Shown: in pieces, positions 22,175 through 32,101 of the stretch
Layout: each line of letters opens with the position of its first letter
Numbering within the stretch: position 1 is the first letter of the stretch
Origin: Escherichia coli
GTDB lineage: Bacteria; Pseudomonadota; Gammaproteobacteria; Enterobacterales; Enterobacteriaceae
Assembly (NCBI RefSeq): GCF_044324785.1
Contig: NZ_CP172127.1
Length of the DNA stretch: 64,000 nt
Direction: 5' to 3' (one strand)
Notes under the pieces: generated by a model
The model's input: the letters and a program-made list of their open reading frames with translations, nothing else
Database searches by the model: none
Told to the model about the DNA's origin: nothing
Translations under genes and position numbers: made by a program

Positions 22175-22851
22175 CACCGGACATTATCCTGCAGCGTACC
22201 GGGATCGACGTGAGAGCTGTCGAACAGGGGGATGATGCATGGCACAAATTACGGCTCGGCGTCATCACCGCTTCAGAAGTTCACAACGTGATAGCAAAGC
22301 CCCGCTCAGGAAAGAAGTGGCCTGACATGAAAATGTCCTACTTCCACACCCTGCTGGCTGAGGTTTGCACCGGTGTGGCTCCGGAAGTTAATGCTAAGGC
22401 GCTGGCCTGGGGAAAACAGTACGAGAACGACGCCAGAACCCTGTTTGAATTCACTTCCGGCGTGAATGTTACTGAATCCCCGATCATCTATCGCAACGAA
22501 AGTATGCGCACCGCCTGCTCTCCCGATGGTTTATGCAGTGACGGCAATGGCCTTGAGCTGAAATGCCCGTTTACCTCCCGGGATTTCATGAAGTTCCGGC
22601 TCGGTGGTTTCGAGGCCATAAAGTCGGCTTACATGGCCCAGGTGCAGTACAGCATGTGGGTGACACGAAAAGATGCCTGGTACTTTGCCAACTATGACCC
22701 GCGTATGAAGCGTGAAGGACTGCATTATGTCGTGGTTGAGCGGGATGAAAAGTACATGGCGAGTTTTGACGAGATGGTACCGGAGTTCATCGAAAAAATG
22801 GACGAGGCACTGGCTGAAATTGGTTTTGTATTTGGGGAGCAATGGCGATGA
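22171..22851 (+). CDS. exo: Exo (Red-alpha 5'-3' exonuclease)
   Basis: 226 aa [43 protein letters not shown]... Confidence 0.9.
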
Positions 22852-23030
22852 CGCATCCTCACGATAATATCCGGGTAGGCGCGATCACTTTCGTCTACTC
22901 CATTACAAAGCGAGGCTGGGTATTTCCCGGCCTTTCTGTTATCAGAAATCCACTGAAAGCACAGCGGCTGGCTGAGAAGATAAATAATAAACGGGAGGCG
23001 GTATGCACAAAGCATCTCCTGTTGAGTTAA
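22842..23030 (+). CDS. Hypothetical small protein (ea-region)
   Basis: 62-aa ORF; start overlaps exo stop. Confidence 0.35.
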
Positions 23031-23194
23031 GAACGAGTATTGAGATGGCACATAGCCTTGCTCAAATTGGAGTCAGGTTTGTGCCAATACCAGTAGAAAC
23101 AGACGAAGAATTTCATACGTTAGCCACATCCCTTTCACAAAAGCTGGAAATGATGGTGGCGAAAGCAGAAGCAGATGAGAGAGACCAGGTATGA
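23003..23194 (+). CDS. Hypothetical small protein (ea-region)
   Basis: 63-aa [29 protein letters not shown]... Confidence 0.4.
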   Translation: MHKASPVELRTSIEMAHSLAQIGVRFVPIPVETDEEFHTLATSLSQKLEMMVAKAEADERDQV

Positions 23195-23204
23195 CAACCA
23201 CTGA

Positions 23205-23486
23205 ATGCATTTTTCTGGCAGCGGGCTTCATATTCTGTGTGCTTATGCTTGCCGGCATGGGGCTTGTTCAGTGACACCTCAGCAAGAAAACGCCCTTCGC
23301 AGCATTGCCCGTCAGGCTAATTCTGAAATCAAAAAAGCCAGACAGCAGTTTCCGGATAAAAACGTCGATGACATTTGCCGTAGCGTGCTAAAGAAGCACC
23401 GCGAAACGGTAACGCTGATGGGATTCACACCGACTCATTTAAGCCTGGCGATCGGCATGTTGAACGGCGTCTTTAAGGAACGATGA
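23205..23486 (+). CDS. Hypothetical small protein, start uncertain (possibly GTG near 23272)
   Basis: ORF ending ...HLSLAIGMLNGVFKER; overlapped by a 27-aa hydrophobic ORF in another frame (23191-23274). Confidence 0.3.
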   Translation: MHFSGSGLHILCAYACRHGACSVTPQQENALRSIARQANSEIKKARQQFPDKNVDDICRSVLKKHRETVTLMGFTPTHLSLAIGMLNGVFKER

Positions 23487-23584
23487 ACATGAAAAGCAAA
23501 ATCATCAGGGAGCTACAGGCTCCTTTTTTATTATTCGCATTTACCCTCAAGCGTATTAACCAACAATTCAGGGATTAATGAAAG

Positions 23585-23803
23585 ATGGCAGACATCATTG
23601 ATTCAGCATCAGAAATCGAAGAATTACAGCGCAATACAGCAATAAAAATGCGTCGTCTGAACTACCAGACTGTATCCGCAACTCATTGTTGTGAGTGTGG
23701 CGATCCGATAGATGAGCGAAGACACCTGGCTGTTCAGGGTTGTCGGACTTGTGCAAGTTGCCAGGAGGAGATCGAACTTAAGAACAAACAATGGGGACTG
23801 TGA
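23585..23803 (+). CDS. TraR/DksA-family C4 zinc-finger protein (lambda Orf73-like)
   Basis: 72 aa with CxxC...CxxC (CCECGDPIDERRHLAVQGCRTCASC). Confidence 0.7.
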   Translation: MADIIDSASEIEELQRNTAIKMRRLNYQTVSATHCCECGDPIDERRHLAVQGCRTCASCQEEIELKNKQWGL

Positions 23804-24129
23804 TGGCCTCAAAGCAGCAAATTTCAACATCGTCCAACTGGGGTGTAAAAATGTTCAGAATCATTTTTCCTAACACCTGGTACGTCGACCACCACGGCAC
23901 TCCCTGCAAAATCCTGCGTTCTACCCACAACAAAGTTCACTACATCCGAAAAGGCAGAACATGTATCGCCAGCATGTTCCGCTTTAATCATGACTTTGAA
24001 CCTGTGAATAAAGCTGATGCAGATCGGATAGCAGAAGAGATCGAAACGGCAGAACACATTAAGAAGTTACGTGACATGCGTTCAAAAAGCAGAGGTAACC
24101 ATGGAATCATACAGCCTCACACTCGATGA
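23803..24129 (+). CDS. Hypothetical protein upstream of xis
   Basis: 108-aa ORF; ATG overlaps the TraR-like stop (TGATG). Confidence 0.4.
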   Translation: MASKQQISTSSNWGVKMFRIIFPNTWYVDHHGTPCKILRSTHNKVHYIRKGRTCIASMFRFNHDFEPVNKADADRIAEEIETAEHIKKLRDMRSKSRGNHGIIQPHTR

Positions 24130-24472
24130 GGCCTGTCAGTTTCTTAAGATATCCAGACAAACCGCCACCAACTGGATACGAACAGGCCGCCTACAGGCAA
24201 CACGTAAAGATCCAACCAAGCCAAAATCTCCTTACCTCACAACACGGCAAGCCTGCATTGCGGCGCTTCAGTCTCCGCTGCATACTGTCCAGGTGAGCGC
24301 GGGTGATGGCATAACAGAGGAAAGAAAATGTCACTCTTCCGCAGAAATGAAATATGGTATGCCTCGTATTCGCTCCCGGGCGGGAAACGAATTAAGGAAT
24401 CTCTTGGCACAAAGGACAAGCGGCAAGCTCAGGAGTTGCACGACAAGCGAAAAGCAGAACTCTGGCGAGTAG
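24101..24472 (+). CDS. xis: Excisionase-like HTH protein (xisD-like); overlaps int start by 145 nt, may be degenerate
   Basis: HTH-like [26 protein letters not shown]; immediately upstream of integrase. Confidence 0.45.
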
Positions 24473-25491
24473 AAAAGCTAGGGGATTTACCTGATGTCAC
24501 TTTTGAAGAGGCCTGCCTAAGATGGCTTGAGGAAAAAGCTGATAAAAAATCTCTCGATTCAGATAAAAGCCGGATTGAGTTCTGGCTTGAACATTTTGAG
24601 GGTATAAGGCTTAAAGATATCTCGGAGGCAAAGATTTACTCTGCTGTAAGCAGAATGCATAACAGAAAGACGAAAGAAATATGGAAACAGAAAGTTCAGG
24701 CCGCCATCAGGAAAGGTAAAGAACCGCCTGTTTATGAACCAAAGCCAGTATCAACTCAGACAAAGGCAAAGCATCTTGCCATGATAAAGGCCATTCTCCG
24801 TGCTGCAGAACGCGACTGGAAGTGGCTGGAAAAAGCGCCTGTCATCAAGATACCAGCGGTCAGAAACAAGCGAGTCAGATGGCTGGAAAAGGAGGAAGCA
24901 AAACGCCTTATTGATGAGTGCCCCGAACCACTGAAATCTGTCGTCAAGTTTGCGCTGGCAACTGGTCTGAGAAAGTCGAACATCATAAATCTGGAATGGC
25001 AACAAATCGACATGCAGCGACGAGTTGCCTGGGTGAATCCAGAAGAGAGCAAATCAAACCGCGCCATTGGTGTGGCGCTGAACGATACCGCCTGTAAAGT
25101 GTTGCGTGATCAAATAGGCAAGCATCACAAATGGGTGTTTGTACATACCAAGGCGGCTAAGCGAGCAGATGGAACATCAACGCCTGCGGTCAGGAAGATG
25201 CGCATCGACAGCAAGACATCATGGCTATCAGCTTGTCGTCGTGCAGGAATTGAAGATTTCCGTTTCCATGACCTCAGACACACCTGGGCAAGCTGGCTGA
25301 TCCAGTCAGGCGTCCCATTATCAGTGCTTCAGGAAATGGGCGGATGGGAGTCCATAGAAATGGTTCGTAGGTATGCTCACCTTGCGCCTAATCATTTGAC
25401 AGAGCATGCAAGGAAAATAGACGACATTTTTGGTGATAATGTCCCAAATATGTCCCACTGTGGAATTATGGAGGATATAAAGAAGGCGTAA
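24328..25491 (+). CDS. intD: Tyrosine integrase (DLP12 IntD-type)
   Basis: 387 aa; catalytic region [11 protein letters not shown]...VRRYAHL; ends 15 bp from tRNA-Arg. Confidence 0.9.
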
Positions 25492-25506
25492 CTGATTGAA
25501 TTGTAA

Positions 25507-25583
25507 TGGCGCGCCCTGCAGGATTCGAACCTGCGGCCCACGACTTAGAAGGTCGTTGCTCTATCCAACTGAGCTAAGGGCGC
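25507..25583 (-). tRNA. argU: tRNA-Arg (anticodon UCU), argU; prophage attachment site
   Basis: Reverse complement reads GCGCCCTTAGCTCAGTTGGATAGAGCAACGACCTTCTAAGTCGTGGGCCGCAGGTTCGAATCCTGCAGGGCGCGCCA. Confidence 0.9.
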
Positions 25584-25825
25584 GTTGATACCGCAATGCG
25601 GTGTAATCGCGTGAATTATACGGTCAACCCTTGCTGAGTCAATGGCTTTTGATCTGGTTGCTGAACAAGTGAACGACCGCGTCTGATTTTCTGATTTATT
25701 TCGCTATAGCGGCAAACAAACGTACACCGCTGCGCGTCTGAATCAAGAAAACCCGTATTTTCATGTATCAAAGTACAATTTCCCGACCTAACGGAAAATT
25801 GTCCGATCCAATGAGACTGGTAACT

Positions 25826-26458
25826 ATGAAACCAACGTCGGTGATCATTATGGATACTCATCCTATCATCAGAATGTCTATTGAAGTTCTGTTGCAAAAA
25901 AACAGTGAATTGCAAATTGTCCTGAAAACGGATGATTATCGCATAACCATCGATTATCTCCGAACCCGTCCTGTTGATTTAATCATTATGGATATAGACT
26001 TGCCCGGAACAGACGGTTTTACCTTCCTGAAAAGGATCAAACAAATCCAGAGCACAGTGAAAGTATTATTTTTATCATCGAAATCAGAATGCTTTTATGC
26101 TGGCAGAGCGATACAAGCTGGTGCTAACGGTTTTGTCAGTAAATGCAATGATCAGAATGATATTTTTCACGCCGTTCAGATGATCCTCTCCGGATACACT
26201 TTTTTTCCCAGCGAAACGCTCAACTATATAAAAAGCAATAAATGCAGTACGAATAGTTCAACGGTCACGGTGCTATCTAATCGTGAAGTGACCATATTAC
26301 GTTATCTGGTTAGCGGATTATCCAATAAAGAAATTGCCGATAAGTTATTACTTAGCAATAAAACAGTTAGTGCGCATAAATCTAATATTTATGGCAAGCT
26401 AGGTTTGCATTCAATTGTAGAGCTTATCGACTACGCCAAATTATATGAATTAATATAA
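25826..26458 (+). CDS. fimZ: Fimbrial regulator FimZ (LuxR-family response regulator)
   Basis: 210 aa from MKPTSVIIMDTHPIIRMSIEVLL... Confidence 0.85.
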   Translation: MKPTSVIIMDTHPIIRMSIEVLLQKNSELQIVLKTDDYRITIDYLRTRPVDLIIMDIDLPGTDGFTFLKRIKQIQSTVKVLFLSSKSECFYAGRAIQAGANGFVSKCNDQNDIFHAVQMILSGYTFFPSETLNYIKSNKCSTNSSTVTVLSNREVTILRYLVSGLSNKEIADKLLLSNKTVSAHKSNIYGKLGLHSIVELIDYAKLYELI

Positions 26459-26460
26459 TA

Positions 26461-26976
26461 TTAATTATAATTGATCATAAATATCGCATCCGCTTTCGCC
26501 ACACCTGGCTGAACACCGCTGGCTAACGCTCGATAATTGGCAAAAAAGTTTAGTGTGACATTGCCATTTGCATCTACTTCCTCAGTCGGGCTCGCCTCCC
26601 CCAGTGCGAGCCGGGAGCGATCGCTATTACGTAATTCGATGGCGACGGTTTGTGCCATTGCGGGATCATCCAGAGCCAGCAGATTGGTATCGGATGCCGG
26701 CGTACCCGTAAATAAAATCGCGACTGAACCCGGAGGACATCCCTCCAGCCGCAGGCTAAAAGGGACGAGTGCCGTGGTATCGCCAGCGGTCAGTAGTTGT
26801 GTCGTAGGCCATCTGCCTAAATCTACCGTCTTATCCTTATCCGCTGTGTTTACGGTACAGGAGAAATCAACAACGTTACCGTGCAAATTGATATTAATCG
26901 TTCCTAAAGGGTCAACTGCCCATCCACTGGAACTCCACAGTAACCCGCAGAAACAGCTAAAGAGTACTCTTCTCAT
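26461..26976 (-). CDS. sfmF: Fimbrial minor subunit SfmF
   Basis: 171 aa from MRRVLFSCFCGLLWSSSGWA... Confidence 0.75.
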   Translation of the reverse strand: MRRVLFSCFCGLLWSSSGWAVDPLGTININLHGNVVDFSCTVNTADKDKTVDLGRWPTTQLLTAGDTTALVPFSLRLEGCPPGSVAILFTGTPASDTNLLALDDPAMAQTVAIELRNSDRSRLALGEASPTEEVDANGNVTLNFFANYRALASGVQPGVAKADAIFMINYN

Positions 26977-26986
26977 TCTCCGTACC

Positions 26987-27994
26987 TCATTGATAATCGA
27001 CGCGTAAATACCCCAGCGCGCTAAACGGCCCCTCGGTCGGTTTTTGACCGGTAATACTGATAGGCCAGGCGCGAAGTGTGACATTGGCTGCCGCAGCTGC
27101 ATCCAGACGGAAAGGAATAACGCTATTGAGATCGTTAGGCGTGATCGGCGTATCGTTCTGATCGGCGACAATAAAGCCTAAATCCTGATTGTCCGACACC
27201 ATCGCCTGACCAGAAACGGCACTGGCTTCCAGACGCATTGTTAAATAAGCCTGCGCAGCAACATTCGTACATTTGACCGCAATGCTCTTGGTTTGCGGCA
27301 TGACACCAGCAGGTCGATTACCCGGCCCTGCCGCACTAAATAACGATGCGCCGATATCACCAAAATCAAATTCAACAATCTGCCCGGCATTTAATTCGCA
27401 GTTTTGCGGTACTTCAACCCGGCCACCAAAACTAATGGTATAAACAGGTGTAACCAACGGATCGTAAGGCGTTGATGTCACATACACGGTAAACATCACC
27501 TGTCTGGGGATCTCCACCATGTTAATAAAGGGCCGAATAACCTTTAAACGAAATATCAAACGAGAATCCATCACCCCGAACGGAAGGTTTTGCGAAACGT
27601 TAGGATCTGTTCCCATACGAATATAATTTTGCGGGGGAAATTGAATATCCATCACGCTATCAACCAGACTCATCGCACCTAATAGATAATCATTTAATTG
27701 CATATATTTATAATTATCGATAGTTTCCTGAACAATAAAGTTGGTGACATAACTACGGTATGTATAATTCACCAGCGTGCCGGGTGGACAAATTGCTGAC
27801 ACACCTACCCAGCCGGATTTTTCCGGTAAAACAACAATCTGCCCTGGCTGGTTATTGGTGCTATTAAAGACATTTGAGAGATCATAGTGTTCATCTTCTG
27901 CTACGCCAGTACTATTTGCACAAACAGTAGCCCAGGATATGTTTGCCAGACACAAACATGCCATTGCCAATAATAATCTGCAGATTATCTTCAT
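26987..27994 (-). CDS. sfmH: Fimbrial adhesin-like SfmH
   Basis: 335 aa with signal peptide, operon context. Confidence 0.75.
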   Translation of the reverse strand: MKIICRLLLAMACLCLANISWATVCANSTGVAEDEHYDLSNVFNSTNNQPGQIVVLPEKSGWVGVSAICPPGTLVNYTYRSYVTNFIVQETIDNYKYMQLNDYLLGAMSLVDSVMDIQFPPQNYIRMGTDPNVSQNLPFGVMDSRLIFRLKVIRPFINMVEIPRQVMFTVYVTSTPYDPLVTPVYTISFGGRVEVPQNCELNAGQIVEFDFGDIGASLFSAAGPGNRPAGVMPQTKSIAVKCTNVAAQAYLTMRLEASAVSGQAMVSDNQDLGFIVADQNDTPITPNDLNSVIPFRLDAAAAANVTLRAWPISITGQKPTEGPFSALGYLRVDYQ

Positions 27995-28006
27995 TGATAA
28001 TTTCCT

Positions 28007-30616
28007 TTATGAGCCAGGATGTGTGCAAACTGCCGAAATAACAGTGACGGCTTGCTGTAAGCTTTGCTTCGGCAATACATAGTGCGCAATGCAGCGTGAG
28101 TTCGCGCCGTCTCCCCACTGAACCAGTAATTCACCAGACAATGGCGCACCACTTAAATAAACTTGCCCGTCATCACCCACCATACTGGTTATTCCGGTAC
28201 TGTTTTCCCGTACCAGTGATCCAAACGGCACCGGTTTTCCGCCCTGGGTAACGGTAATGAGCGCCCGCACGCCTATGCGGGTATCAAAATTGGCACGAAC
28301 CAACGCGCCTTGCGTCGGCACAACGCTGCTAATATTTTTTTCAACATCGATGGAATTCCCCATCGTATTGGTATCAAGCGCGATACGGTTATACCGATAA
28401 ACCGTGGCATACGGCATCACCGCATAGCCGCGCCAGTCGGTTAAAATTCCAGTTTGATTTTCAATGCGTACACCGCCTGCGCCTGGCGCTTTAATCAAAA
28501 CATTGGTATCCCCTAAAGGCTGGCTCAGCGTTATGCCATTTTCATGTCCGACCACACCGCCAGACAGCTGCCAGTTAACGTCATGTTGATCGCGGTCGTA
28601 GTTATACCCGACCCCCAGCGTACCGTAAGTGGCCTGCCAGTTTGCCGTAGCGCTGCCCGTATACCCATTATTCGAGGTATCGCCCTGGCTTACGTGATAA
28701 CTCAGGTTGTGGCCTTCCAGTAAGGTCCCACCTACACCTGCCAGCCAGCTATTTTGCCCGTTGCTGTTACGGTTGGCGTTAAAGGAGGCATAAGCGCGGT
28801 CGAGCGCATTTTCCCGGGTGTAGCGACGTTTGGTCAGAACATTGAAAGGCACTGAAACATTAAGTCCGACAATACGTTCGTTATCGGGGATCCCTACAGA
28901 TTCATTCCACGAAAATGAGAGTGAATAACTGATGCCAACCCAGCTGCTGGTATACCCCACCTGATACCAGGTATCTGAATCCGAAGTATTCCAGTATTTT
29001 TGATGGGTACCAGAAATATAAAGCGAGCCAAAGTCATTAAGTGATTGTGAAATATTTAACTGCAAACGGTCTTTACGGCTAAAGCGTAAATTGTGGTAAT
29101 TCACGATTATCGGTTCATCGCGATGCTCACCGTCATAATCGTAATCATATTCGTACCCCTCCATACGACGATACGCAACATCATCAAGGGTATAAAAACC
29201 TTGTGTCGAATAGCGGTAACCCATTAACTGAAAATTGGTGCCGAAAGTGTTCATTGATTTCGCATAGAGGAAGCGAATGGAATCCCCCTCATGACGACTG
29301 TCGTCGGCTAACTGACTGCGCGCATGCGTTACATCCAGCGACACTGCGCCCCAGTTCCCGAGGTTGCGCCCCAGCCCTAACAAAAAGGCGGTGTAATTGG
29401 CAGATAATTGCGTCCCGCCGTAGGCAGTAAATTCCTGTGGTAAACCGCCGAGTGCCGTGCCCTGAAAAAAGAAAGGCGACGATTGCTGACTATTACCGCT
29501 ACGAAAATCGCCCGCCGTCAGGTCAAATTTGAAACGCCCTTCGCGTTGTAAAATTGGCACTGTTGAATACGGAATAGTGTAATTCTGCTGATTACCATCG
29601 CGCTCGTCGATGGTGACGTCCAGATCGCCATTTGAAGATGTCGGGTGCAAATCTGTAATTTCAAAAGCGCCGGGGGAAACATAGCTTTGATAGATAATAA
29701 AACCATTTTGCCGAATCGTTAGCTGGGCCGCCGTACGGGCAATCCCACGTACCGTTGGGGCAAACCCTTGCTGGCTATCAGGATACATATTATCGGAAGA
29801 ATAAAGCCGTACACCTCGAAATCCGACGCCATCGAAAATATCACTCCCTGTATTACCGTCTCCCATTACCAGTTCACTTTTCAGCGGAATAATGGCGCGC
29901 TGTACCCAGGTGCCAATATTATTCCACTGTTCTGAATGATATCCATTTCCGCGAAAATAGTTCCAGGAACCATTGTTGCGTAAACGCCACGGGCCAATAT
30001 TAATCCCGCTGAGTTCACTAAAAAAATAGCTATCGTTACCATTACCTCTGTTACCGGTGAAATTATAATTCAGGAGTAAAGCAGGAATACCTTCATCCCA
30101 CTCTTCAGGCGGAATGTAACCGTGAGCGCTACTCAACAACGCTATCTGAGGAATAGTGATGTTCAGGCGCATCGCTGCAAAATCAAAGTTAATTGTGGCA
30201 TCAGGTACAGCTTTCAGTAAATTGATGCATTTATTATTTTGCTGCAGGGCTAACTCGGGGAATGCACTGCTATTAAGGCCAATTCGTTCAAGGAGTGCCT
30301 GGTTAAAACAAGGCATTAACCCACCTGATTTATCACCTGTATTTACTGTCGTCGATTCAAATACGATATCCTGTGAACCAATGAACTCATCATTACGCCA
30401 GAGATCCACCCGATACACACCCGCAGGTTGATGATTACCTCTCTCAAAGCGCGATAAATCAGCAACGGATGTGCCATTCTCTAATAAAAATGCCGGGTTG
30501 AAATAACTTTCCGCATAGCTTAAAAAGGAGGGTAAAATGGCAAGAGATGAATAACAAATTCCGGCCAGACACCAGCTATACCTCTGCGGAATATCCGTAG
30601 TAGTGGGTATTTTCAT
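28007..30616 (-). CDS. sfmD: Fimbrial outer-membrane usher SfmD
   Basis: 869 aa usher. Confidence 0.85.
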
Positions 30617-30646
30617 AATTAGCTCTGATATTGTCAGATGATTCGG

Positions 30647-31339
30647 TTAGTTTAAGTTCACTTCTCTGACCGGGGTTACTGAACCATAATCATTAACGGT
30701 CTGAAATTTCAGCTTTCCCTGCACTCCTGAGGGTAAGGGAATTTGTGAATTAACTCTGGGTGCAGCCATAGCATTCCCCAGTTTTTGGCTGCCCACTTGC
30801 AGGTTAACCAGGGTGACATAAAAAGGTGATGGATTATGAACATTGATATAGTTACCGGATCGCGAAAACTTGAGTGTGTCCGGCGCTTCTGCGGGTAATT
30901 CTTGTAGTTGAATTGGACGGAGAAATAACTTCATGCGCGATAAAATCGCCAGTTGCAAAACATTCCTGCCGTTCAATGCATTTTTATCTACCGAAGGGAT
31001 CGTCTTAACATTCATCCAGAACAGAGACTCACGATCTGCCGCCAGCGGTGGACCGGTGTAAATAATACGCAAAGTATTTTCGCTTTTGGGTTCACTAACA
31101 AACAGTGGCGGTGTAATGATGAATGACTTTTCTTTTACACCGCTGCTGTTTTCAATCCACGAGTTGACCAGAAAACGCTCATTGGTATGGCTATTTCTAA
31201 TCCATACCGCAGTCTGTTTAGCATCAGCGGGATAAATAATACGCGTGGCACCTAATGCGATCCCTCCGGCAGCATGGGCGCTGGCCGAAATGATTAAATA
31301 AAATATAATGAGCATCAATAACTTTATTTTAGTCATCAT
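30647..31339 (-). CDS. sfmC: Fimbrial periplasmic chaperone SfmC
   Basis: 230 aa PapD-like chaperone. Confidence 0.85.
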
Positions 31340-31558
31340 AGTTAATACGCCTTGTGTATTCCTGACGGCAAAAATAAGAAATATAAAGAAATGATTGCTT
31401 TGGTTTCTTACAACACATCATTCCCTTTTCATTTAATAAAGCGGCATGATACAAAGTGAACATGATTTCGATTTACATTGCCACCATACCGCTTCAGACA
31501 ACCGGTACATTACTTTGTTATAAGACGTGATATATAATTCAAAACAACGTGGTTTTGA

Positions 31559-32101
31559 TTATTCGTATCTCATAATAAAAGTCGCGTCAGCATTTGCTTG
31601 CCCTGCTGATGCACTTGTACCGGTGCCTTTATAACGTGCAGAAAAATGAAGAACGTTGGTCCCGGGGATCAAGTTCTGGTTGGTTGAGAAGCTATTCCCA
31701 TCAGGTTTGAGAATTGCGGATGTATTATCAAGTATTTCAATACCGACACCCGTTGCTGTTGTTGTATTGGTACTGGATGCAATGGCCAATAAATTATCAT
31801 TGATTGCATCCGCCTGACCAGAAAATGCAACGGCAGCATTAGCGGCAACAACAGGATCGCAGTCGTTCAACTGAATGGTGAATGGAATTAATGCAGAGGT
31901 ATTACCAACAGCATTGAAAATATCGGTACGATATTGACCGAGTGTGACAACCTGGTCTGCCGAGTCAGTATTCACTGAACAGGCAGCATTCACCAGTTCG
32001 CCTTCAAAGTGAATTGTACCGCCATCTACAACGGCAGCATAACTACCCGTAGCGGCGAATAGTGCGGCAGCCAGCGCAGACGAAATAAATCTTAATTTCA
32101 T
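31559..32101 (-). CDS. sfmA: Fimbrial major subunit SfmA
   Basis: 180 aa from [28 protein letters not shown]... Confidence 0.8.

Follow-up and report, generated by a model that had tools for sequence, protein, structure and literature searches.

The open reading frame at positions 24101-24472 of the window, the 64,000-nucleotide stretch of Escherichia coli DNA analyzed here, is very probably an intact excisionase gene (xis) of the P22 Xis family. Its overlap with the integrase gene int is a normal and conserved trait of that family, already known from the annotation of P22 and its relatives.

Identity and start of the excisionase gene

The features that define the gene are the following.

24101-24472, plus strand: xis, very probable P22-type excisionase (recombination directionality factor), 123 amino acids (aa) plus a TAG stop (PHROG 2907, HTH_17)
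24071-24100, plus strand: in-frame extension upstream of xis from a GTG start, probably untranslated (list of open reading frames)
24092-24096, plus strand: Shine-Dalgarno-like GAGGT, 4 nt before the xis ATG (sequence context)
24328-25491, plus strand: int, tyrosine integrase, 387 aa, called intD in RefSeq genomes (Pfam Phage_integrase, E = 5.5e-47; RefSeq annotation of near-identical loci)

The predicted protein matched the PHROG 2907 family, named "excisionase," with an E value of 7.7e-46, residues 1 to 116 being aligned to profile positions 2 to 117 of 117, and its C-terminal 48 residues alone matched positions 77 to 117 of the same profile (E = 4.5e-8). Pfam HTH_17 (PF12728) was recognized at residues 6 to 36 (E = 1e-8; 35.7 bits against a cut-off of 27), while the NCBIfam model TIGR01764 ("excise") reached 26.4 bits, just under its cut-off of 28.8. 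The lambda Xis family gave no match, HTH_17 being the only family returned by the Pfam scan at E ≤ 0.01, and the lambda Xis entry was not among the matches of a PDB profile search at E ≤ 1. A tblastn search of Xis against 50,697 phage records matched 162 of them, with at least 80% of the protein covered in 161 of the 162. Identity to P22 Xis was 75% over 122 aligned positions, and identity to the PhiR30_1 homologue was 99%.

In the list of open reading frames of the window, the xis-like frame runs from 24071 to 24472 on the plus strand and encodes 133 aa from a GTG start; the length of 123 aa is that of the frame read from ATG 24101. This ATG is almost certainly the true start, as judged from alignment with the homologues. 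Similarity to every homologue begins there, and the extra 10 codons from GTG 24071 are unsupported by any of them. The annotated xis of P22 starts at the aligned ATG, with a different upstream gene, eaC, ending 3 nt before it, and in every phage examined the frame read from the aligned ATG or GTG yields a full-length Xis. We therefore rejected GTG 24071 as the start, since both homology and the Shine-Dalgarno sequence favor ATG 24101.

The frame contains no internal stops, remains colinear with those of its homologues over its entire length, and terminates at TAG 24470-24472, 145 nt inside int. The initial annotation, which had described an HTH excisionase-like frame overlapping int by 145 nt in another reading frame, was thus correct about the overlap (24328-24472), and only the start needed to be moved to ATG 24101. 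Its remark that the protein is longer than typical Xis proteins is true in relation to lambda Xis, which has 72 aa, but not within the protein's own family, where 115 to 123 aa is the norm.

Geometry of the overlap across phages

Two further features describe the junction of the two genes.

24328-24472, plus strand: xis/int overlap of 145 nt, putatively dual coding, with Xis residues 77-123 in frame 1 and Int residues 1-48 in frame +2
24317-24321, plus strand: Shine-Dalgarno-like GAGGA for int, located inside xis (sequence context)

The int frame is +2 relative to that of xis, so that the first position of each int codon is the third position of a xis codon. The start of xis precedes that of int by 227 nt in the window, P22, SfI, POCJ13, and ENT47670 and by 224 nt in EPP-1, APSE-1, HK446, and SfX. 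Among seven diverse phages whose Xis proteins are 40 to 85% identical to that of the window, xis invariably starts 224 to 227 nt before int and ends inside it. An overlap of 124 nt, with an Xis of 115 or 116 aa, is found in P22, SfI, and HK446, and one of 145 nt, with an Xis of 122 or 123 aa, in the window, PhiR30_1, POCJ13, and APSE-1. A xis gene overlapping int is in fact annotated in P22 (116 aa, 124 nt), SfI, ENT47670, HK446, SfX, and APSE-1 (145 nt). The alternative of a genuine overlap, which had been proposed beside that of a pseudogene, is therefore the one that was borne out.

Two natural length classes of Xis

The length of Xis is set by one codon of int.

24448-24450, plus strand: Int codon 41, CGA (Arg) (nucleotide alignment)

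We took 53 cluster representatives of the family from a search of 5.8 billion proteins. They fall into a short class (29 of 53; 114 to 116 aa) and a long class (24 of 53), 23 members of which have 122 to 125 aa; the remaining one, P0062 (115 aa), was placed in the long class by its aligned tail only. Long Xis proteins end in ...G-E at the same stop in Escherichia, Salmonella, Citrobacter, Cronobacter, Serratia, Pantoea, Rahnella, and the Hamiltonella phage APSE-1, and the stop used by the window xis is shared by 23 other family representatives.

With CGA as Int codon 41, xis is read as AGC GAA (Ser-Glu) at this point and continues for seven more codons to a TAG or TAA stop, which is built from the Int Val/Ile47 codon (GTA or ATA) and the base that follows it. 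With a Leu codon there (CTG or CTA) and A as the next base, xis is read as AGC TGA or AGC TAA instead, and the protein ends at 115 or 116 aa. A single base in Int codon 41 thus decides between 123 and 116 aa, and both alleles are widespread across the Enterobacterales. Since this codon sets the length class, the extra length relative to P22 represents a natural, widespread allele rather than a lost stop.

These observations bear directly on the suggestion that xis is a 3'-extended, degenerate gene that has lost its normal stop and reads on into int. The suggestion could draw on the seven codons by which the window Xis exceeds the annotated 116-aa P22 Xis and on the fact that PGAP calls the near-identical gene of MRSN346647 a pseudogene fragment. 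However, an overlap with int, of 124 nt, exists in the short form as well and is thus not due to a lost stop; the 122/123-aa form with the same stop is found in the seven genera listed above and in APSE-1, whose Xis is only 45% identical; and the long form is present in the deposited complete phage genomes PhiR30_1, PhiR49_1, PhiR29_1, ev243, and POCJ13. The MRSN346647 frame is itself intact, which makes the PGAP label an annotation artefact. We consider degeneration of the 3' end highly improbable. Homologues of the same length and with the same overlap in inducible phages had been named as the finding that would speak against it, and the 123-aa form indeed recurs in phages, and across Enterobacterales genera, with an unchanged stop. 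The inducibility of the phages carrying the identical 123-aa form is deduced from their entries in the database, where they stand as complete phage genomes for which a propagation host is given; a literature search on PhiR30_1, PhiR49_1, ev243, and POCJ13 returned nothing on induction.

Annotation of xis in databases

In MRSN346647, PGAP reduces xis to its first 22 codons (1822-1887 of locus L004, corresponding to 24101-24166 of the window) and labels them a pseudogene "missing C-terminus," despite an intact frame of 123 codons. The xis frame is left unannotated in several phage records, and the protein database holds many "partial" Xis entries of 86 to 91 aa. PGAP shortens or drops xis in many genomes, apparently as a systematic consequence of its overlap with int, and such artefacts probably explain why the frame had seemed suspicious.

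Two records contain actual breaks. In Salmonella phage SEN22 (locus L015, 1501-1638), xis is frameshifted near codon 30, which leaves a frame of 45 aa, and in Enterobacter phage vB_Ecl_MII_001 (locus L007, 1728 onward) the int frame is interrupted after 116 codons, its annotation being split into pieces. Either sequencing errors or decay of the modules would account for these breaks.

Probable selection on the overlapped reading frame

We aligned the codons of eight full-length int genes and determined, among codon pairs encoding the same amino acid, the fraction with different codons. In this small and phylogenetically non-independent set, synonymous differences amounted to 0.40 in Int codons 2 to 41, compared with 0.60 in codons 49 to 387. 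The value for codons 2 to 41 was the lowest of 346 sliding 40-codon windows (median, 0.60); when five lineage representatives were used instead, the overlap ranked 5th of 346. The minimum, 0.25, was reached at codons 22 to 31, which encode Xis residues 97 to 106, and the fraction was 0.6 to 0.7 right after codon 48. Invariant third positions made up 17.5% of Int sites in the overlap and 3.8% of those downstream. Translation initiation, RNA structure, or other effects may likewise lower synonymous change at the 5' end of a gene.

The constraint could be assigned to individual residues. All nine sequences compared have T as the last base of the Int I/F/V22 codon, CTT for L26, and GAC for D30. 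The third bases of these codons determine Xis L98, L102, and T106, found in 52, 52, and 53 of the 53 representatives, respectively. An A or G at the third position of Int codon 22 or 26 would create a stop in xis. Other Xis residues are forced by Int, namely, C77, encoded by the TG of the int ATG together with the T of the Ser2 codon, and G86, encoded within the Trp10-Tyr11 codons.

When the first 60 Int codons were randomly recoded with synonymous codons, the xis frame stayed open over its observed length in 18 to 53% of the trials, depending on the lineage. An open xis frame therefore proves nothing by itself, and one could argue that only the N-terminal DNA-binding domain matters, with the int-embedded part of Xis being a functionless tail that is tolerated because the Int sequence rarely generates stops. 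Such a tail would fit the prediction that this part is mostly disordered, its natural variation in length by 7 aa, and the forced nature of several of its conserved residues (C77 and G86). Against this stands the distribution of the synonymous constraint, which is strongest under Xis residues 97 to 106 and fades near the xis stop. Moreover, the Int third positions that could turn L98 or L102 into a stop, Ser, or Trp are invariant down to 40% identity, and, leaving out visibly damaged copies such as that of SEN22, every family member extends at least to Int codon 41. The C-terminal tail of lambda Xis also contacts Int. A functionless tail thus appears quite unlikely to us. The support that these comparisons lend to dual coding in the xis/int overlap is good but not conclusive.

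Predicted structure and proposed mechanism

An AlphaFold2 model of Xis, built on the 53-sequence alignment, delineated two structured parts.

24116-24208, plus strand: predicted N-terminal winged-helix/HTH DNA-binding part, Xis residues ~6-36 (HTH_17; AlphaFold2; Foldseek)
24362-24409, plus strand: predicted C-terminal alpha-helix, Xis residues 88-103, containing L98 and L102 (AlphaFold2/DSSP, pLDDT ~50-70)

Residues 1 to 60 were modeled with confidence (pLDDT 82-94) as strand-helix-helix-strand-helix, the linker of residues 64 to 87 had low confidence, and the basic tail was disordered. A Foldseek search with the N-terminal domain retrieved the Xis of mycobacteriophage Pukovnik (4j2n; TM score of 0.73 to 0.74 on the target), BldC, RacA, and P2 Cox, and 4j2n was also matched by the Xis sequence profile (E = 0.003).

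On this basis, we propose that the MerR-like winged-helix domain (residues 1 to 60) would bind repeated sites in the P arm and bend the DNA. The disordered linker and the C-terminal helix (residues 88 to 103, with L98, L102, and T106), which are encoded inside int, may contact Int, neighboring Xis protomers, or both, in a cooperative manner. Such Xis-Int contacts would push Int toward excision and inhibit re-integration, in the manner reported for the Xis proteins of P22 and lambda. With the ribosome-binding site and the first 48 codons of int lying inside xis, both proteins could be made from one leftward transcript after induction. P22 prophages with a deletion of xis cannot excise (PMC8575938). 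According to the account of Mattis et al. (2008) given in PMC7498355, the purified P22 protein binds att DNA and bends it; a block of re-integration at high Xis concentration was also proposed.

A private allele in the DNA-binding domain

One substitution distinguishes the window copy from its relatives.

24159, plus strand: A for C, giving Xis P20Q, private to the window copy (comparison with relatives)

We kept 80 IMG/VR loci, all 98 to 99% identical, and used them for allele counts and not for divergence. Proline occupies position 20 in all 61 near-identical IMG/VR relatives (61/61), in PhiR30_1 and MRSN346647, and in 48 of the 53 family representatives, and an exact match to the 61-nt stretch around 24159 was absent from all 1,248 complete E. 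coli genomes that carry the segment, these differing from it by a single mismatch, presumably at this site. In the model, residue 20 is the N-cap or start of the predicted recognition helix, and P20Q might affect DNA binding.

The rarity of the allele raises the question of whether P20Q impairs the window copy of Xis, leaving a structurally intact gene in a poorly excisable prophage. Distant, functional-looking members of the family carry D, G, S, or V at this position, however, and the exchange is a single, conservative-sized one at a helix N-cap. The window genome is moreover ~1.3% diverged from every genome of the collection, so that private single-nucleotide polymorphisms are to be expected. 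An impaired copy therefore seems unlikely.

A more speculative scenario concerns both polymorphisms. The two Xis lengths might reflect a co-evolved pairing, in which the 7-residue tail (E-K/R-x-N-x-G-E) and Int residue 41, located in the arm-binding N-terminal domain of Int, tune Xis-Int cooperativity or partner specificity, while P20Q, separately, might render the prophage excision defective. We would give this combination little credence.

Prophage context

A boundary of the element and the gene preceding xis are as follows.

25507-25583, minus strand: tRNA-Arg (tct) gene, integration target and prophage boundary (ARAGORN; RefSeq context, fimZ downstream)
23851-24129, plus strand: DUF4222 gene upstream of xis (Pfam DUF4222, E = 3e-19; RefSeq and phage annotations)

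Judging from its sequence surroundings, xis belongs to a lambdoid prophage that has the tRNA-Arg (tct) gene beside fimZ as its insertion site. The tRNA gene, known in K-12 as argU and occupied there by DLP12, lies on the opposite strand 15 bases past the int stop and is followed by fimZ. Upstream of xis are lambda-type bet and exo genes, a TraR/DksA zinc-finger gene, and the DUF4222 gene, the last 29 nt of which overlap the xis start. The xis gene thereby overlaps both of its neighbors, a layout that is the same in PhiR30_1 and SfI. Large minus-strand frames, presumably phage late genes, reach as far as the left end of the window. We located no second att copy in the window, and the attachment-site P arm, where Xis would be expected to bind, falls outside it.

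We observed no TTGC-N6-TTGY match between 24000 and 24400 that would indicate a lambda-style PI promoter/cII site in xis. The sole strong sigma-70-like site between 23500 and 25800 lies on the minus strand at 25642-25615, upstream of the tRNA gene; with TTGACT, a 16-nt spacer, and TATAAT, it has 11 of 12 matches and is probably the tRNA-Arg gene's own promoter. When positions 20000-32000 of the window were compared with 5,426 complete E. coli genomes, the top match was 98.7% identical over 12 kb.

Comparison with known systems

The value of these results lies mainly in annotation: the gene should be called xis, with coordinates 24101-24472, and not a pseudogene. Knowing that the overlap is conserved makes it easier to assess the excision capability of prophages at this tRNA-Arg site, and xis/int provides a clean, small case of dual coding in which synonymous sites of int appear to be held by Xis residues. 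To the understanding of site-specific recombination, the xis/int overlap adds nothing new.

A close annotated parallel is P22 Xis (NP_059585, 116 aa), which shares with the window the 227-nt start spacing, the relation of the two frames, an Int of 387 aa, the N-terminal HTH_17 domain, and a conserved C-terminal L..LL.QRT motif. Int codon 41, which is CTG (Leu) in P22, is CGA (Arg) in the window; this lengthens the window Xis by 7 aa and the overlap from 124 to 145 nt. The gene upstream of xis also differs, being the DUF4222 gene in the window and eaC in P22. The window prophage resides at a tRNA-Arg gene, whereas P22 integrates at thrW, and the related attP of HK446 is annotated as similar to thrW.

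Much nearer relatives are PhiR30_1, PhiR49_1, PhiR29_1, ev243, and the prophages of ~1,200 complete E. coli genomes, which carry a 98 to 99% identical 123-aa frame with the 145-nt overlap. They have the same DUF4222 and TraR neighbors and the same intD as the window, but, apparently throughout, encode Pro20 where the window encodes Gln20, and the frame is unannotated in most of their records.

The xisD remnant of DLP12 in K-12 occupies the same integration site next to the same intD. Similarity of MG1655 to the window starts at 24233, and to the left K-12 matches the window up to 22877, just past exo. K-12 has thus suffered a deletion of 1,355 bp (window positions 22878-24232), with TA microhomology at the junction, that removed xis codons 1 to 44 together with the HTH. 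The same deletion takes the DUF1317, DUF1382, TraR-like, and DUF4222 genes along with the xis HTH and fuses the region following exo to xis codon 45. The 79 codons at the 3' end of xisD are those of the window except for one base, 24420. The initial annotation had invoked the degenerate K-12 xisD in support of a pseudogene; xisD is indeed degenerate, but it fails as an analogy, since the damage is a 5' deletion that leaves the 3' part in place, and its degeneracy therefore says nothing about the 3' overlap. A literature search on xisD with DLP12 found no paper.

Lambda Xis presumably resembles the window Xis in being a small winged-helix directionality factor. It is encoded directly upstream of int, which it overlaps by ~20 nt, and has a flexible C-terminal tail. 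The two proteins nevertheless have no detectable sequence-family relation, the window Xis having Pfam HTH_17 in place of the lambda excisionase family. By sequence profile, the closest solved structure to the N-terminal domain of the window Xis is that of Pukovnik Xis (PDB 4j2n), also one of the best fold matches, a protein of 58 aa without the linker, helix, and tail that the window encodes inside int. Within the family itself, the Hamiltonella phage APSE-1 has, in its P40/P38 pair, a 122-aa homologue annotated as a putative excisionase, which ends in ...NYGE and overlaps the integrase gene by 145 nt just as in the window; it is only 45% identical and comes from a different host lineage, that of an aphid symbiont.
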